Below are positions 18,539 through 25,962 of a DNA stretch of 64,000 nt, piece after piece. The notes under the pieces were generated by a model. The model saw only the letters and a program-made list of their open reading frames with translations, had not been told where the DNA came from and ran no database searches. The stretch comes from a virus, in IMG/VR virus record IMGVR_UViG_3300017971_000201, positions 64,001-128,000 of that record; one strand, 5' to 3'. A program made the position numbers and the translations under genes. The stretch's first letter is position 1, and every line of letters begins with the position of its first letter.

Positions 18539-19066
18539 CTACACCTGGGGCACGGGCAGCGGCAGGATCTCGACCCGCTCGACCGAGAGGGTCAGCTCCT
18601 CCATCACGACCTCGGAGCCGGAGGCGTCCAGGTCGGTCGCCGGCCGCCATGTGGACGGGATGCAGTCACGCAGCCAGAGCATCCGCTGTGGAATCCGCTT
18701 CTGGTTCCGGGTCTGGACGACGATGAGACTCCGCCGGGGCGCGACGCGGCCCCAGACGACCTGCTGGAACCAGAGCCACATGTCGAGGTTCGTGTTGAAG
18801 ACCGCGAAGCGGATCGTGCACTCGCCGCCAGCGACGTAGCCCTGCGGCACGTGGTGCGTGAACGGCCAGTTCCCCTCGCGGATGTCCTTCATGTCCACTG
18901 TCATCTCGGGGATCGAGATCGACTGGAAGCCGACGTAGCTCCCGTTGTTGATCGCGCTCTGGACGGCCTTGACCGGAAACGCGGTGGGGAAGACGCCGGC
19001 AACGGGAACATCCAGCAACGCGAAGTTGTGGCTCAGGAGCGGATCACTGTTCACCGATCTAGCCAT
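18539..19066 (-). CDS. Tail tube paralogue / tube initiator (gp19 family)
   Basis: DP....F, GF.SIS.PE......REGN, W.L..C.P, LDA.GSEV.MEELTL.VE. Confidence 0.85.
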   Translation of the reverse strand: MARSVNSDPLLSHNFALLDVPVAGVFPTAFPVKAVQSAINNGSYVGFQSISIPEMTVDMKDIREGNWPFTHHVPQGYVAGGECTIRFAVFNTNLDMWLWFQQVVWGRVAPRRSLIVVQTRNQKRIPQRMLWLRDCIPSTWRPATDLDASGSEVVMEELTLSVERVEILPLPVPQV

Positions 19067-19075
19067 GGCGCCATC

Positions 19076-20935
19076 CTACCGCGTCTTGAGCTTGCGCCGC
19101 TTCCCCTTCTTCGGCCGGATGCCCAGACCGCCGAGCACCTTCTTCTTGAGGTGCTCGGGCGCTCCAGCCAGCTGAGCCTCGAGCCACGCCTTGCCCTTTG
19201 GGTTCTCGAGCGGCTTCGCCAGGATCCGCGTGGCGAACCGGTGCATCCTCGGCTCGATCTCGGTGCGGAACTCGACGCTGCTCGTGTCGTACGTCCCCTT
19301 GTTCTCGATCTCGTAGTAGCGGTGACCGAACTTCTGCTTGTAGACCTGGGCGGCCTTCGCCACCGCCTTGTGCGAGGCGACCACATCTGCGTCAGGAACC
19401 GTCCGTCCCCGTGCTTGGTTGCGGGCGCGGGCAACGTCGAGAGGGGTGACCACCATCACCATGGAGCAGTCGTAGCCGAGGTCTTCGAGCGCCCTCTTGC
19501 CTTTCAGGATGTAGGTGGGGTTCTTGGCGGTGCCATCGACGACCATGCCGAGCCGCCCGCGCGCGAATTGCTCGCGCTGATTCATCATCGTGTACCACGA
19601 GCGGTCGTGCAGCTCCTTCCCGATCGATGGGAACTTGGGGTTGTCAGTCGGTAACTGGAAGGCCGTCTTGAGATCGATGCCCTTCTGCCGTACGCGCCAG
19701 GCGAAGATCTCGTCCATGCTCAGCGCCTTGAGCCCGAAGGCTGCGCCGAGCTGGCTGCCGAGCTTCCCGAACATCGTGCCGGCGGTGAAGCTCTTGCCCG
19801 AGTTGTGGTGGACGGCTCCCTCGGCCACGTAGTTCGCCCAGCGCGGCACGGTCAGGTCGTAGTAGACCCCCTCACCCGCTGGCTTGATCGTCCGCACTCG
19901 TTTCCACATGCTATGATAACGGCATGACGCCACAGCAGCTTGATGAGATGGAGCGCCTCTACCAAGAGGGCTGGAACTCGGTCCAGCTCGGTCTTCGCTA
20001 CGACCGAACGCCGCCGACGATCCGCTACCACCTACGGAAGCGCGGTGCGACGGTGCGCTCCCGTGGAGAGGCGAACCGGCTCCGCGCCCCGAGCGCGCGC
20101 TGTCAGGTAGACGAAGCGAAACTGCGCGAGCTTCACGGTCGGGGTCTGAGAACGAGGGAGATCGGGTCTGCTCTTGGTGTAAGCGCGGAGACTGTTCGCC
20201 GCCGCCTGCGAGACCTGGGCATCGCTCGCCACCAGCGCGGAGCGCCTGGGGAGCGGAATCGTCACTGGCAGGGGGGCCGCATCGTGGACGACGATGGCTA
20301 CGTGCTCGTCCACCGACCGGATCACCCGTTTGCGACGAAGGCCGGCTACATGCGCGAGCACCGGCTGGTGATGGAGGCGCACCTGGGTCGCTACCTTGAT
20401 CCGTCTGAGGTTGTCCACCACGCAGACAAGAACCCGCAGAACAATGCGCCGTCGAACCTGAAGCTCTACGCGACGAACGCAGAGCATCTTCGGGACGAAC
20501 AGACCGGAGTTCCGAAGAACGTGTCACCGGAAGGTCGCCGCAGGCTGCAAGCCGCTGGTCGCAAGAGTGGCGCAACTCGGAGAGCGAAAGCCAGCCGGAA
20601 GGCGTCAGGAAGCGGTGCTCGTCAGTCACGGTGACGCGCGACCCGTCCTCCAGCTCGATCTCGTGCAGCTCCGCCACACCCTTCACAAACGGCGCGTTGC
20701 ACTCGACCGGCTCGAACCCATCCGGTGTCAGTGCAAGTACGGTGATCGGCCCTCCGCGCTCGGCCAGCGCGTCTACGCGCTCCTCCAGTCCCGTACGCGG
20801 ATCGAGGATCTTCGTGTGCGGCGCGATGCAGCCCATACCGCCGCCGAGGAAGATCACCTTGAGGATGTGCGGATCGAAGACGCCTTCGTGCAGGCTCCGG
20901 GCAGCTGCCGGAACGATCCGCTCGAACAGGCACAC
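19076..20935 (-). CDS. Zeta-toxin-like P-loop kinase (probable head protein) with an intein in Walker A
   Basis: GTG 20935; LHEGVFDPHILKVIFLGGGMG-[intein]-SGKS; VVDGT; A..RN..R.R.VP. Confidence 0.8.
   Translation of the reverse strand: MCLFERIVPAAARSLHEGVFDPHILKVIFLGGGMGCIAPHTKILDPRTGLEERVDALAERGGPITVLALTPDGFEPVECNAPFVKGVAELHEIELEDGSRVTVTDEHRFLTPSGWLSLSELRHSCDQRLAACGDLPVTRSSELRSVRPEDALRSSRRASGSTAHCSAGSCLRGGQPQTDQGSDPGAPPSPAGARACSRPSSQTGDPVGGRARSHRRPRCGPPASDDSAPQALRAGGERCPGLAGGGEQSPRLHQEQTRSPSFSDPDREARAVSLRLPDSARSGRGAGSPLHGSAPSHRASVGGSGSSAAFGRSEDRAGPSSSPLGRGAPSHQAAVASCRYHSMWKRVRTIKPAGEGVYYDLTVPRWANYVAEGAVHHNSGKSFTAGTMFGKLGSQLGAAFGLKALSMDEIFAWRVRQKGIDLKTAFQLPTDNPKFPSIGKELHDRSWYTMMNQREQFARGRLGMVVDGTAKNPTYILKGKRALEDLGYDCSMVMVVTPLDVARARNQARGRTVPDADVVASHKAVAKAAQVYKQKFGHRYYEIENKGTYDTSSVEFRTEIEPRMHRFATRILAKPLENPKGKAWLEAQLAGAPEHLKKKVLGGLGIRPKKGKRRKLKTR
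19802..20830 (-). mobile_element. Intein (343 aa) in the kinase Walker A motif
   Basis: Begins CIAPHTKI, block B TDEHRF, ends YDLTVP..NYVAEGAVHHN/S; removal restores GGMGSGKS. Confidence 0.92.
19924..20634 (+). CDS. HTH-HNH endonuclease nested antisense inside the intein
   Basis: Two HTH repeats, GERNRHWQGG, EHRLVME.HLGR.L...EVVHH.D.N..NN.PSNL; TATGAT at 19912-19917, 6 nt before ATG. Confidence 0.88.
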   Translation: MTPQQLDEMERLYQEGWNSVQLGLRYDRTPPTIRYHLRKRGATVRSRGEANRLRAPSARCQVDEAKLRELHGRGLRTREIGSALGVSAETVRRRLRDLGIARHQRGAPGERNRHWQGGRIVDDDGYVLVHRPDHPFATKAGYMREHRLVMEAHLGRYLDPSEVVHHADKNPQNNAPSNLKLYATNAEHLRDEQTGVPKNVSPEGRRRLQAAGRKSGATRRAKASRKASGSGARQSR

Positions 20936-20936
20936 G

Positions 20937-21470
20937 CTAGTACAGGTTCTTGCCGCGCTGCTTGTCCGCCGCGTCGGCACAGGACTCCGCAGCCTTGGCC
21001 GCCGCACGGAGCGACGAGACCAGAGCCTTGTGCTTGGGCTCCATCTTGGAGAGTCCGGGGTCCTTCCAGCGCTTCTTCTCGGCCCACATCCGCTCGCATG
21101 TCGTGGCCGCATCCTCGAGCGCGTACTGGAGATCGCGCTTGTTGATGTAGCGACGGGGCATCATGCCCATCATCTCGTGGAGAGGGTTGCGGCCGTCGTC
21201 CTGATCCTGTTCCTGCTCGGTCAGGCCGGCCAGCTTGTCGAACTGTCCCATCGTGTCCTCCTGGGCGCCCTTACCCTTCATGCGAACGATGGCAAAGCCC
21301 GCCCTCTTGAGGGCACTTCGGATCGCGAGCACCTTGTCGTACGGCTTGGTGAACTTCTCACCATGCTGCAAAGCCTTCAGGAGAGCGGCGTCCACCTCCT
21401 TGCGCTTGGCGATCTTCTCGCCCGCGTTCTTGGCCTCAACCAGTCCCGCCCTCTCGTCGAAGTGCCCCAC
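20937..21470 (-). CDS. Hypothetical protein, probable internal head protein
   Basis: Repeated MGxFD..AGL.E units and an LHE site. Confidence 0.6.
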   Translation of the reverse strand: MGHFDERAGLVEAKNAGEKIAKRKEVDAALLKALQHGEKFTKPYDKVLAIRSALKRAGFAIVRMKGKGAQEDTMGQFDKLAGLTEQEQDQDDGRNPLHEMMGMMPRRYINKRDLQYALEDAATTCERMWAEKKRWKDPGLSKMEPKHKALVSSLRAAAKAAESCADAADKQRGKNLY

Positions 21471-21485
21471 CGCCGCTCCTCTACG

Positions 21486-21746
21486 TCATCCCTGGATGGC
21501 CTGGTCAAGGTGATCAATGGCCGTACTCACCGCACCTCTGGCTCGCATCGCTTTGTGCACGCGACGATCGAGCGATTGGCGTGCGCCAGGCTTGGCGACC
21601 TTGAGCTGCTTGCGGACCAGGGCCTCGATCGTCTTCAGCCTGTCGCCAATTCCCTCCAGCGAGGACTTGGCCGACATGAGCGAGGACACCGCCGCCTCGG
21701 CTTCCACAAGCGACTCATCCTCGATCACGCGATCGAACAGGCTCAT
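21486..21746 (-). CDS. Small coiled-coil protein, probable internal head protein
   Basis: N-terminus MSLFDRVIEDESLVEA. Confidence 0.6.
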   Translation of the reverse strand: MSLFDRVIEDESLVEAEAAVSSLMSAKSSLEGIGDRLKTIEALVRKQLKVAKPGARQSLDRRVHKAMRARGAVSTAIDHLDQAIQG

Positions 21747-21786: not shown

Positions 21787-22272
21787 TTACGCGGAGATGA
21801 TCTCGACCTCCAGCTCCTCGAGAGTGAGCGTCAGCTCTTGGAGCGCGACCTCGGAACCGGTAGCGTCCTTGTCGGCCATCGGCTTGACCGTGGACGGCCA
21901 GCACTCGCGCAGGCGCATGATCCGGGAGGGCGACCCGTCGATCCCGAACTCGTCGGTGATGTGGAACTCCATGATCATCAGGTCGGAGCGGTAGGTCTCC
22001 GCTGAACCGTTGATCACGTCGATGATCCACTTGTAGAAGTCGGACTCCCGCTGGACCGTGCCCTTCATCAGCTGGCACTCGCCGACGGTCTGGATGCCGG
22101 GGAACTTCCGGGTCCAGCGGTACACGCCCTCGCGGTACTCCGCCGGATCGATGCTGACCTCGGGGGTCGAGACCGTGGAGAACCCGGCGACGGGGTCGAG
22201 ATGCCCGCCGGCCGGGTCCACGACGTGGAACCTGTAGTTCAAATACGGATCTGTACTTGCAGCGCGGGCCAT
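21787..22272 (-). CDS. gp19: Tail tube protein
   Basis: DPY.NYRF.V, AGFS.VS.PE.....EYREG, K.PG, L.KG, SEVA..ELTL..E; downstream of the sheath. Confidence 0.92.
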   Translation of the reverse strand: MARAASTDPYLNYRFHVVDPAGGHLDPVAGFSTVSTPEVSIDPAEYREGVYRWTRKFPGIQTVGECQLMKGTVQRESDFYKWIIDVINGSAETYRSDLMIMEFHITDEFGIDGSPSRIMRLRECWPSTVKPMADKDATGSEVALQELTLTLEELEVEIISA

Positions 22273-23171
22273 TAGCTCACCCTCCGTGCGTTGGTCTTGT
22301 CGAGGATACCTTGTCGATCGCGAAGCTCACGGTAGGTAAAGCCAAGCGAATTGAGCTTCCGTTCGTCCCAGATGGAGAACGGCAGGCTTGGATGGTCCTG
22401 CGTGAAGGCTTCGATCAGGCGATCCTGAGTCTTAGTCCGCCGACCCTTCACATCGATGAGGTTGACCAGCGCGCCGTCATCGTCATAGACCCAGAAATCA
22501 GGCGTGTACCTGCGAGGCTTGCCGGACCGGGTTCGCAAACTGTCGAGGTCGTAGCTGGTCACCTCGTAGATCCAGGTCAGCGCTTGCTGATCGAGCCACC
22601 AGGCCGCGAGCACCTCCCACGAGGATCGCATCAGGAACTCGCGGCCGAGCCTGTCGGTGAACGACCACTTCTTCCCGCGATGGTTGAACCCCTGCGGCCG
22701 GAGCCTGGCTCCAACCCGATGCAGCAAGAGATTGATGCCGGTAAGCGACATCCTGTAGTACTTGGCAAGCTCGGTGGTCGTGCGTCCTGCCGCATAAGCG
22801 GCGGCGATCTCGCGCTCCTTCGCGTCCGACCACCGCTTGTTCCGGTGGCCGGTCGCATCGCGCTCAACGCCAGCAGCGCGCAGCGTGTCGTAGACGCAGT
22901 CCTGCCCAACACCCAGTGCTGCCGCGATCTTAGGACCGCTCTCGCCCGATTGGTAGCGGCGTACGACCTCCGACCGCCGCTTCTTATCGAACTTGACGTG
23001 CCCCATGTTCTTCCGCAGCCGCTTGAGGCCCAGCTTCGAGGCCCGCGTCCGAACAGCCATAGGAGATCGACCTGGCAGCCGGTCAGCGCACCACGACGGA
23101 CCGTGGTCGGGGTACGAGGCGCGAAGCACCTCGTCCTCCTCCCTCGTCCATCTGGACGCTGCACGAGCCAT
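22272..23171 (-). mobile_element. Free-standing homing-endonuclease-like gene (Myb/HTH repeats plus PD-(D/E)xK nuclease)
   Basis: RWT.EED..L, HTH repeats, RSSWE...A..LD.....YE, YTPDF....IDVKG; sits between sheath and tube. Confidence 0.8.
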
Positions 23172-23199: not shown

Positions 23200-25962
23200 C
23201 TACGAGATCTGCGTGCCGACCGGCTGCTGGAGGGTGAAGATGATGAACTCCGCCGGCGTGCCGGGGTTGAACCCGATGTCGATGATCGCCTTGCCATCGG
23301 CCACGGTCGCGGCGTTGTTGTTCGTGGCGTTGCACGTCACGAAGAACGCCTCGGCCTCGGTCTCGCCGGCGAAGTAGCCGAGACGGAACAGCGAGCCGTA
23401 GTAGCCCTTGAGGGCGGTCTCGATCTTCGCCCACAACGGCGGCCCGTTGTTCTCGAACACAGCCCACTGGAGGTTGAGGCTGGTCGCGTACATCAGGAAC
23501 ATGTGCAGCGTGCGCGCGTTGATGTATCGCCAGCGCCTCTCTCGCGAGAGACTGCGAACCCCCCAGACGGCGATCCCGGTCGCGTCGCTCGAGATGATCG
23601 GGTTGATCCTCGACTGGTAGAGGTTGTCCCGGTCGGTCTTCTCCAGCACGAACTCGGCGGCGACGACGCCGACCGCGTTGAGCGCGCCGTCCTCGACACC
23701 ACCGGGGGCCTTCCCGACGTTCTTGACGTTCGCCGTGCGAGCGTAGACGCCGGCCACGAGCGGCGACACCGGCACCAGCTCGACCCGATCGGTGAGCGGG
23801 TTGACGAAGTAGATGTTGGGGTAGTACATCGCCCCGATCTTCTCGTCCCACGCCTGGTCGACCTGGATGTACTTGATCGCCTCGCTCACGGTCGTGCCGT
23901 TGGCGTAGCACATGATCAGGTAGCGCAGGTCCGGCCGGTTCTTGGCGAACTGGACCATGTCGAACTGCACGAATTCCGAGCCCTCGAAGTCCGGCACCAC
24001 GACGTTGAGGGGCTCCTCGACCAGGTCGAGGGCGTAGATCCCCTGCTTGCTGGACTCCAAGGCGGCGGCCGAGATGTCCGCGCGGGTGACGGCCGTGCCG
24101 TTGACACCGCCGGACATCTGCCACTCCGCCGAGTCGGCGAGCCCGGTGTAGTTGCCCAGGATGGCGGTGCCGGCCGTCGGCGCGCTGTCCCAGGTCAGGT
24201 CCCAGGCGCCGGTGTCGTAGTCGATCGTGTTGGCACCGGCCGCGTCCACGTCTCCGACCAGGTTGCCGAGCCCATCGTCGGTCGCGACCTGGCCCGACTG
24301 GTAGTCGGCGTCGATCGTGGTCGTGTTCCTCGGGGCCACGAGCGTGGTGAGGGCGATGATCCCGGTGACGTAGTCGACCGAGCCAGCTGCACCAGCGACA
24401 CCGCCCAGCTCGGTCAGGTCTCCGGCCACGTCGCCGTTCACGATCCCGAGCGGAACGTAGTCCACCAGGATGTCCGTGCTGCCGATCGGAGCCACCGAGG
24501 CTTCGAAGTCGATCAGGCCGCTCTGGGTCGGGTTGGACACGTCGTCCACCAGGTCGATCGTGTTCGTGCCCACGCCGAGCGCGCCCGCGAGAGCGACTCC
24601 CTGCTCCAGGTTGTCCGTGCCGGCCGCCTTGGTGATGATCGCCGACGCGTTGTAGGTCGCGATGACCGTGCTGGTGAGCACCAGCCCGCCGCCCAGCGAT
24701 CCGGTCACGAGCCCGGTCATGGCACCGGTGACGTAGTTGATGGTCCCGCCGCCCGGCATGGCCAGGGGGTTCACCAGGTTGCCGAGCCCGTCGTCGAGGA
24801 TGACCTGCGCGCCGTCGTCCACGGTCGTCACCGCGATGGCGACAGTGCCGGGGTGAACCGGCGTGCCGGTCAGCGGTGCCGTGCTGAGGTCGTAGTTGCC
24901 ACCCGGCGACGACGCGACCAGCGTCTCCGGCGAAGGACCGGCCACGATCGCGTAGCGGAGCTGGAAGACCGTGTTCTCCCGGTAGACGGGAGCGGTCAGC
25001 GCGCCAGCCGCGATCTGGAAGGACGTGTCGGCTCCGTTGACCGTGCCGAGCGCGAACGGGCCGCTGCCGAGGTTGTCGAACTGGTTGCTGACCTTGGCGT
25101 AGAACAGCCGCAGGCTGCCGTCGAGCACCGGCGTCGTCGGGAGCGTCATCGCGAACGATGTCTCGATCCCGTCGACCGCCGGTGTTGGCGTCTGGCCCTC
25201 GTCGTCCTGCTGGGCATCGGCCGCGACGATCCGCAGCGTGTTGTCCAGGCAGGCGCCGGCCGAGAGCGTCCCCGAGAACTGCGTGTCGATGCCGTTGACC
25301 GATCCGCCGGCCACCAGCACCTCGTCCTCCTCGTATGAGGGGAGCAACCCGCTCGGCGTGCCGCCCGCGCCTTCGGTGATCTCCACCAGCTGGGAGGGCC
25401 GCCGGGGATCGGTGAGGACGGTGGTGACGTAGTCGGCCGCGTCCGGGTCGGTGAACTGGACCGCCTCGTAGGTCTCCTCGGAGACGAGGATCGAGGCGTC
25501 GAACTCCGAAGGACGGAGGACGAGCAGGTCGAACTTCCCCCACTGCTCGGCGCCGGCCGTCCGGTCGAGGAAGTTGCGGTTCCCTCGGATGTGGATCCGG
25601 GTCGTGTTCCCCCAGGTCCCCTCACCCTTCATGGTGAAGGTCCACTTGGTGGGGCCAGGCGACGCGTCGATGTTCGCCCACGCCGAGATGGCATCGGACG
25701 GAACCACACGGACGATGTAGGCCCGCTGTCCACCGTTCCCGAAGAAGCCCTGGATCCCGATCGGGACCAGACCTAATGACGAGATCTGGCCGAAGACCCG
25801 CTCGAACTCGACGGTCGAGCGGACCTCGACCGGCGTGTTGCTCGGTCCCTCGTCGGTCCATCCGACGAACGCCGCCTTCGCGGGAGAGATGCCCTCGGGG
25901 GCACGAGACGGCTCCTTCTCGAAGCCGTAGACACCTGGGCTGAGGATTTCGAGTTGGGCCAC
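23200..25962 (-). CDS. gp18: Tail sheath protein (920 aa, with large inserted repeat domains)
   Basis: SPGVY..E, AFVG....GP, KAPGG, RINPI, VWG.RSL, RYINAR, FE.N...LW, PAEFI. Confidence 0.95.
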   Translation of the reverse strand: MAQLEILSPGVYGFEKEPSRAPEGISPAKAAFVGWTDEGPSNTPVEVRSTVEFERVFGQISSLGLVPIGIQGFFGNGGQRAYIVRVVPSDAISAWANIDASPGPTKWTFTMKGEGTWGNTTRIHIRGNRNFLDRTAGAEQWGKFDLLVLRPSEFDASILVSEETYEAVQFTDPDAADYVTTVLTDPRRPSQLVEITEGAGGTPSGLLPSYEEDEVLVAGGSVNGIDTQFSGTLSAGACLDNTLRIVAADAQQDDEGQTPTPAVDGIETSFAMTLPTTPVLDGSLRLFYAKVSNQFDNLGSGPFALGTVNGADTSFQIAAGALTAPVYRENTVFQLRYAIVAGPSPETLVASSPGGNYDLSTAPLTGTPVHPGTVAIAVTTVDDGAQVILDDGLGNLVNPLAMPGGGTINYVTGAMTGLVTGSLGGGLVLTSTVIATYNASAIITKAAGTDNLEQGVALAGALGVGTNTIDLVDDVSNPTQSGLIDFEASVAPIGSTDILVDYVPLGIVNGDVAGDLTELGGVAGAAGSVDYVTGIIALTTLVAPRNTTTIDADYQSGQVATDDGLGNLVGDVDAAGANTIDYDTGAWDLTWDSAPTAGTAILGNYTGLADSAEWQMSGGVNGTAVTRADISAAALESSKQGIYALDLVEEPLNVVVPDFEGSEFVQFDMVQFAKNRPDLRYLIMCYANGTTVSEAIKYIQVDQAWDEKIGAMYYPNIYFVNPLTDRVELVPVSPLVAGVYARTANVKNVGKAPGGVEDGALNAVGVVAAEFVLEKTDRDNLYQSRINPIISSDATGIAVWGVRSLSRERRWRYINARTLHMFLMYATSLNLQWAVFENNGPPLWAKIETALKGYYGSLFRLGYFAGETEAEAFFVTCNATNNNAATVADGKAIIDIGFNPGTPAEFIIFTLQQPVGTQIS

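Follow-up and report, generated by a model that had tools for sequence, protein, structure and literature searches.

Introduction

Can an intein carry its homing endonuclease on the opposite strand, and if so, is the second reading frame kept open by selection or has it stayed open by chance? The question is raised by a locus in the viral record IMGVR_UViG_3300017971_000201 (159,664 bp, ~58% complete), of which we analysed bases 64001–128000, a stretch of 64,000 nucleotides (nt) that we call the window and to which coordinates refer unless another locus is named. The virus is an uncultured large myovirus; on the minus strand of the window lie myovirus tail genes, namely a sheath (23200–25962), two gp19-like tubes and a tape measure.

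An initial annotation, made from the sequence alone, had described a complete intein (C1, TxxH, HN/S) that splits a Walker A motif and whose frame reads through a low-complexity stretch without a stop, and on the other strand of that stretch a helix-turn-helix (HTH)–HNH gene whose 3′ end runs over intein block B. It had proposed a composite element with both strands held open. Every element was found where this annotation had placed it, and composition, statistics and comparison of relatives agree with its description. We put the probability at about 0.82 that the locus is a composite selfish element, in which a class-1 intein occupies the Walker A loop of a kinase-like phage protein and an antisense HTH–HTH–HNH gene lies between the two HINT lobes of the intein. 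About 90 related loci, in several P-loop-like host proteins, are built alike and use a single fixed register.

The intein and its host gene

The insert is a class-1 intein with a predicted HINT fold, located between GGMG and SGKS of the host Walker A motif (Table 1). Its boundaries are fixed to the base, since the viral loci L004, L005, L006 and L007 and the metagenome locus L125 are uninterrupted and read GGGMG/SGKS (here and below, slashes in protein motifs mark the junctions). The intein displays C1, T69-D-E-H72 in block B, H341-H342-N343 and Ser+1, of which C1, H72 and N343 are invariant across 50 related inteins. In an AlphaFold2 (AF2) model built on 50 related inteins, two well-predicted lobes enclose a middle without secondary structure (confidence, pLDDT, in Table 1), and Foldseek matches the model to the Mtu RecA mini-intein (E 3e-7) and to the NpuDnaB mini-intein (TM score 0.86, normalised to the target).

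The host gene forms a single open reading frame (ORF) that is stop-free from 20935 to 19076, as in its relatives, and the spliced junction would read GGMGSGKS, leaving Walker A intact once the intein is removed. That splicing takes place is suggested by the intact motifs together with purifying selection on the exteins, visible in the GC content at third codon positions (GC3, 0.89 in the C-extein) and in the 86% identity to L004. The ORF program had listed the host ORF as 19076–21112 (−). However, the true start is likely the GTG at 20935, since intein-less alleles align from there and the upstream ORF stops at 20937–20939, 1 nt before it; the initial 59 codons of the listed ORF lack coding composition. 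Against Pfam, the intein-less allele L004:2947–3723, which belongs to a related phage of 275 kb, scores 34 bits for AAA_33 (cut-off 27) and 31.1 bits for Zeta_toxin (cut-off 22.3). In a phage collection, nucleotide search returned no close relative, and protein search returned distant kinase homologues only (Melnitz, HTVC008M and Atu_ph07), where the Melnitz match appears to run on into the intein C-lobe.

The middle of the intein, residues ~100–300, is rich in R, S, G, P and A. Read in the intein frame, the lobes have a GC content of ~0.7/0.47/0.8 at codon positions 1/2/3 and the middle one of 0.74/0.75/0.47; GC3 is 0.78–0.89 in exteins and splicing lobes. An intein-frame alignment of related inteins contains no conserved columns in this part. 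Composition, lack of conservation and predicted disorder thus rule out that the low-complexity stretch is a functional domain in its own frame. A split intein was likewise ruled out, as the intein frame contains no stop codon.

Table 1. Features of the composite locus (window coordinates; pLDDT, predicted local distance difference test; aa, amino acids; HMM, hidden Markov model)
Feature	Coordinates	Strand	Details or basis
Host gene, precursor of AAA_33 / zeta-toxin-like P-loop protein	19076..20935	-	Likely GTG start at 20935; 619 aa with intein, 276 aa spliced
N-extein, 35 aa	20831..20935	-	Ends ...IFLGGGMG (first half of Walker A); intein-less alleles
Class-1 intein, 343 aa	19802..20830	-	C1 ... 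HHN, then Ser+1; boundaries versus intein-less alleles, predicted HINT fold
N-terminal HINT lobe, residues 1-100	20531..20830	-	Blocks A and B, T69xxH72 at 20615-20626; pLDDT 91-98, GC3 0.81
Read-through loop, residues ~101-300	19931..20530	-	Open frame, predicted disordered; pLDDT 39-56, composition
C-terminal HINT lobe, residues 301-343	19802..19930	-	Blocks F and G; pLDDT 80-98, C-lobe HMM matches across family
C-extein, 241 aa + stop	19076..19801	-	Begins SGKS (second half of Walker A; SGKSFTAG...); 86% aa identity to L004
Antisense HTH-HTH-HNH homing-endonuclease gene, 236 aa	19924..20634	+	Pfam, PHROG, homologues, AF2
TGcTATGAT, extended -10-like element, candidate promoter of leaderless mRNA	19909..19917	+	6 nt before HNH ATG
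Segment deleted in L010, HNH catalytic core, 282 nt / 94 codons	20204..20485	.	In frame on both strands

The antisense HNH gene

On the plus strand, the gene caller of the source record already predicts the HNH ORF (P0003). Its product matches Pfam HNH_3 with 37.8 bits (cut-off 24.8, E 1.5e-9) and PHROG HNH families with E-values down to 4e-26, and more than 200 database homologues align over the full length at 40–51% identity. H146, N174, N185 and H188 are invariant in 30 HNH homologues, the window included, and the window protein keeps every invariant core residue. In the AF2 model (mean pLDDT 85), two HTH modules of three helices each precede a beta-beta-alpha core (strands 119–144 and 163–182, helices 145–154 and 185–194; pLDDT 94–98), and a helix closes the C-terminus. 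The HTH modules (P0002 residues 1–100, 19924–20223 on the plus strand) match the CRISPR-repeat-binding HTH-repeat protein PDB 2lvs (profile E 2e-8, Foldseek E 0.01) better than any solved homing endonuclease.

Both ends of the gene reach the splicing lobes. The stop codon (20632–20634) and the final ~6 codons overlap the codons for T67–H72 of block B, in line with the overlap that the initial annotation had noted, and the C-terminal tail of the HNH protein is conserved where it overlaps; the ATG falls at the border of the C-terminal lobe.

A second copy of the intein, carried at the same site by a 2.2-kb metagenome contig (L010) whose extein is 68% identical, reveals where each frame is selected. 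Between the window and L010, substitutions in the lobes gather at intein position 3 (30 versus 10 and 9), and in the middle at intein position 2, which is HNH position 3 (38 versus 13 and 10), indicating selection on the intein frame in the lobes and on the HNH frame in the middle. Taken together, the drop in GC3, the Pfam and PHROG matches, the confidence of the HNH model and these substitution positions establish that the middle of the intein is protein-coding on the plus strand only.

Selection on the stop-free frame

To compare this locus with its relatives, we assembled 106 loci fetched with an HNH alignment, comprising 80 from IMG/VR (the best 80 of 513 relatives) and 26 from genomes, and added the window and nine loci fetched earlier. 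Intein lobes were detected with HMMs of both lobes. This yielded 105 distinct HNH segments, 88 with an adjoining intein lobe and 17 without. Intein lobes on the HNH sense strand occurred in 0/113 loci, so no in-frame version of this HNH subfamily was found there; with the HNH on the other strand, a frameshifted in-frame HNH domain was ruled out.

The stop-free intein frame is not due to chance. When the HNH ORF of the window was resampled synonymously, the intein frame was stop-free in 0.4–0.9% of trials, with 4–5 stops expected, and shuffling the order of its codons left the frame open in 0.1%, giving a probability of 0.001–0.009 for the absence of stops in the window HNH gene. In the same relative frame, other window genes would show ~9 stops per 236 codons.

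The comparison of relatives leads to the same result. All 88 distinct HNH segments with any adjoining intein lobe (88/88) have zero stops in the intein frame, whereas 13 of the 17 free-standing segments have stops there, up to 13 of them. The 66 distinct segments that have both lobes contain no stop in the intein frame, against an expectation of 337; their other two antisense frames contain 315 and 538.

The frame offset places intein codon position 2 opposite HNH position 3, so that stop hazards arise in the HNH contexts xTC/A, xTT/A and xCT/A (slash, codon boundary). No such context is present among the 44 codons of the window HNH gene that precede a codon starting with A. Across the family, stop-creating contexts were found at 0/3642 opportunities in embedded HNH genes versus 68/566 in free-standing ones, and Phe followed by I, M, T, N or K at 0/229 versus 4/27. 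The intein frame is thus kept open by codon choice and even by amino-acid choice.

Distribution of the element and its host sites

Adjoining intein domains are found in 76 of the best 80 IMG/VR relatives. In 73 loci, counted before duplicate removal and including 56 of the 80 viral loci, both lobes lie in one antisense stop-to-stop ORF around the HNH gene, and the codon register is identical in 73/73. The printed junctions look P-loop (Walker A)-like by eye, reading G/C...HN/[ST]GK[ST] or GK/C...HN/T, and belong to several host proteins: the kinase-like protein in the window, a giant methylase-helicase in L011–L015 and terminase-like junctions elsewhere. L011–L015 contain the nearest relatives of the HNH protein; these are annotated as free-standing, but actually lie antisense within inteins that split the P-loop of the methylase-helicase, and the minus frame is open over the entire contigs. 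Splicing lobes and HNH proteins have diverged together to 20–50% identity. Taken with the stop-free frames, these comparisons indicate a single ancient capture and prolonged joint descent, in the course of which the element passed from one host protein to another.

The intein with its antisense HNH gene was also observed in bacterial assemblies (L099–L112), namely of Polaromonas, Tepidisphaeraceae, Kineosporiaceae, Acidobacteria, Peribacteria and a cyanobacterium; L099 and L112 are both ends of one 4.5-Mb contig of Polaromonas sp. CG9_12. These elements probably lie in prophages. The nearest relatives of the splicing lobes of the window (tblastn, 55% identity) are mini-inteins of 134–174 aa without an HNH gene, located at L016 1568–1969, L017 1547–2068 and L018 2133–2654 in P-loop sites of apparent terminase large subunits. 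Possibly they are what remains once a member of the same family has lost its endonuclease.

Expression signals and proposed mode of action

Upstream of the HNH gene, TATGAT is located at 19912–19917. A TANNNT hexamer exactly 6 nt before the ATG is found in 11/65 family members including the window, with 0–2 at nearby offsets. Many other members carry a Shine-Dalgarno core 4–11 nt upstream, often with a TATAAT-like box further up. This pattern suggests a leaderless HNH mRNA that would start at the A of the ATG, and we infer that the HNH genes carry expression signals of their own. The proposal in the initial annotation that endonuclease expression is uncoupled from the host gene thereby gains indirect support.

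In our model, the host mRNA would be translated straight across the antisense HNH gene, and the two HINT lobes of the precursor would fold around the resulting loop, splice and restore GGMGSGKS. Transcription of the HNH gene would be separate, starting from a −10 element of its own and yielding a leaderless mRNA; the HNH product, guided by the two HTH modules, would nick or cut the uninterrupted P-loop-coding DNA of intein-less phages during co-infection, after which repair would copy the intein together with the HNH gene into the cut site. Since P-loop-coding DNA is similar in many ATPases, the element could also move between host genes.

A bolder version of this model, which we regard as possible but doubtful, describes an old, co-adapted and obligately dual-coding element specialised in P-loop-coding DNA, with its own partly leaderless promoter hidden antisense to block F. 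The opposite strand would then be adaptive, either by setting the timing of the nuclease apart from that of a late, highly expressed host gene or by tuning through convergent transcription.

Alternative explanations

Several observations weigh against the composite selfish element. Splicing, HNH activity, the target site and transcription are all inferences. The intein sequence models fall slightly under their curated cut-offs (Pfam Intein_splicing 35.3 versus 35.8, TIGR01445 24.3 versus 24.5), so that its classification as an intein relies on the motifs, the fold and the intein-less alleles. Structurally, the HNH model matches I-HmuI (1u3e) weakly (E 0.07, probability 0.99), and Foldseek of the whole model against the PDB returned nothing at E ≤ 0.001; the global superposition is probably spoiled by flexible linkers between the three modules. 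A promoter and terminator scan of 19500–21200 found nothing, including no full sigma-70 consensus, so that the promoter argument comes down to the position-specific enrichment of TANNNT. The correlation between lobe distances and HNH distances (Mantel r 0.47, 0/2000 permutations), which favours a co-adapted unit, is inflated by shared ancestry and by the ~20–80 nt common to both partners. Finally, within this host gene the element was found only twice, in the window and in L010, and a metagenome scan for more copies returned only the intein-less 275-kb phage.

The history of these two copies also admits more than one account. Presence is patchy, the intein-bearing window being nearest to the intein-less L004 and the intein-bearing L010 nearest to the intein-less L007; as the closest alleles of both are intein-less, at least two gains or precise losses must have taken place. 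This patchiness, like the loss of the HNH core in L010 described below, may be a sign of a homing cycle. Nucleotide identity between the window and L010 is 83.5% in the intein and 72.7% in the exteins. However, synonymous divergence of the intein (0.18–0.30) is close to that of the exteins (0.32–0.33), and recent horizontal transfer between the two was dropped as an explanation for this reason. Judged from these alignments, vertical descent with precise losses would fit equally well.

L010 additionally gives rise to the best-surviving alternative, a decaying relic in which the intein still splices, the HNH protein is inactive and the frames are open only because decay has not yet arrived. L010 has lost the HNH catalytic core by a deletion between two LRD-coding repeats that retains both HTH modules, and its −10 element is mutated to TGTGAT, so that the sole other copy in this host gene is one without an HNH core; the rarity of the element in this gene and the lack of any sign of recent transfer would fit decay as well. 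The window copy, however, retains every invariant HNH-core residue, has a full-length ORF with the start signal of the family and differs from L010 in the HNH frame mostly at third positions (0.13/0.14/0.32 for positions 1/2/3), which makes a relic unlikely.

The initial annotation had added possible regulation by antisense transcription, under which HNH transcription would act on the host gene through transcriptional interference or an RNA duplex; we rate this as slightly less likely still. The idea is pure conjecture and draws on geometry alone, the HNH gene being the sole plus-strand gene in a minus-strand tail-gene block, and the arrangement is explained without it.

A free-standing HNH gene could also have landed recently and by chance in a mini-intein, in a transitional state without co-adaptation. 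Capture of a free-standing gene is the origin model proposed for antisense intein endonucleases (bioRxiv 10.1101/2025.01.02.630785), and the genome of this virus also has free-standing HNH and other endonuclease-like genes. A recent landing is nevertheless very improbable given the one register in all 73 loci, the conserved overlap of the gene ends with the lobes, the joint divergence of lobes and HNH proteins and the stop-free frame that is universal in embedded copies. A fractured host gene, with halves made separately and trans-spliced by a split intein around an endonuclease gene, is hardly credible, since, although such loci exist (Dassa et al. 2009, PMC2677866) and gene callers split the host gene here in related records, the intein frame has no stop, an absence that is selected, and no separate start signal is evident for the C-terminal half.

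Neighbouring genes

The kinase-like gene is flanked by two T4 gp19-like tail tube paralogues, 18539–19066 (−) and 21787–22272 (−), which are ~30% identical to each other. The order tube, kinase-like gene, tube is conserved in L004 and L007, and in Methylophilales phage Melnitz distant homologues of the kinase-like gene adjoin baseplate and tail genes, which suggests that the function of the kinase-like P-loop protein is linked to the tail module.

Just upstream of the host gene, a 177-aa ORF (20937–21470, −) is conserved in L004 only over residues 58–147 (70%), and an 86-aa ORF (21486–21746, −) has no counterpart in L004, so that the two form a variable spot adjoining the intein-bearing gene. 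Between the tail sheath and tail tube genes lies a 299-aa ORF (22272–23171, −) with several HTH modules and a C-terminal nuclease-like part, which matches the PHROG ‘Holliday junction resolvase’ and, weakly, DUF1064. L004 has sheath and tube side by side, with a homologue of 30% identity at another position (L004 5208–5867). The 299-aa ORF thus looks like a free-standing gene of homing-endonuclease type that may move between intergenic sites. Outside the window, the same virus record carries two more HNH_3-type genes, L002 at G000:C1:39495–39803 (−) and L003 at G000:C1:21076–21249 (+), which have no adjoining intein lobes and are therefore free-standing paralogues.

Implications

In related records, gene callers cut the host gene in two and label the HNH gene as free-standing. 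Consequently, such inteins and their intact hosts (kinase-like proteins, giant methylase-helicases and probably terminases) are missed in phage and metagenome records. The family supports the view of intein origins in which the splicing domain came first and the endonuclease was captured later, and it illustrates that a captured gene can remain on the wrong strand through long divergence. The cost of this arrangement is that ~600 nt have to satisfy two frames at once, which is measurable in codon and amino-acid choice. With three forbidden codon contexts and no Phe before I, M, T, N or K, the family provides a clean data set on overlapping antisense coding. Tools to be gained from it are compact mini-intein scaffolds that target P-loops and accommodate a disordered loop of 200 residues, together with a set of HTH-guided HNH nucleases whose targets may be predictable.

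Comparison with known systems

Antisense endonucleases in inteins have precedents. Antisense LAGLIDADG genes are described for the inteins of Synechocystis DnaX and a Chloroflexus SpoVR-like protein (Gorbalenya 1998 and Gogarten 2002, as cited in bioRxiv 10.1101/2025.01.02.630785). For actinophage inteins, Gosselin, Arsenault and Gogarten (bioRxiv 10.1101/2025.01.02.630785) describe antisense genes of the LAGLIDADG or VSR-like type; they give HNH as an in-frame domain only and term antisense architectures rare. The element described here shares with these the ORF on the opposite strand between the lobes, an open intein frame whose translation has no recognisable fold and the proposed origin from a captured free-standing endonuclease gene. 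It differs in the nuclease, which is HTH–HTH–HNH of the HNH_3 type rather than LAGLIDADG or VSR-like (EDxHD), and in its abundance, with 513 IMG/VR relatives, one fixed register and P-loop-like sites in place of cases described as rare.

In-frame HNH inteins likewise join intein and HNH nuclease in a single mobile unit, inserted at a conserved position of an essential-type gene. There, however, nuclease and intein share one polypeptide, which is produced only as the host gene is translated, whereas the present HNH is encoded separately on the opposite strand and has start signals of its own. In ShiLan (Arsenault et al. 2025, PMC11855218), an out-of-frame HNH is hidden in a phage methylase ORF on the same strand and without a splicing domain. 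In both cases the insertion conceals an HNH in a different frame and does not interrupt that of the host, but here the insertion is a complete intein and the HNH is antisense to it. The fractured genes with split inteins of Dassa et al. also harbour a separately expressed endonuclease gene inside an intein locus, in contrast to the contiguous intein in one uninterrupted ORF found here. Phage HNH nicking endonucleases of the I-HmuI type resemble the nuclease in combining an HNH_3-type core with added DNA-binding modules for long targets; their genes are intron-encoded or free-standing, the structural match is weak, and the N-terminal HTH repeats here resemble 2lvs instead.

A full-text literature search, with most subscription journals outside its coverage, turned up no description of inteins with an antisense HNH gene. 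Within the known architecture of antisense-endonuclease inteins, the HNH type and the host protein appear to be new, and the family is far larger and more uniform than published descriptions suggest.

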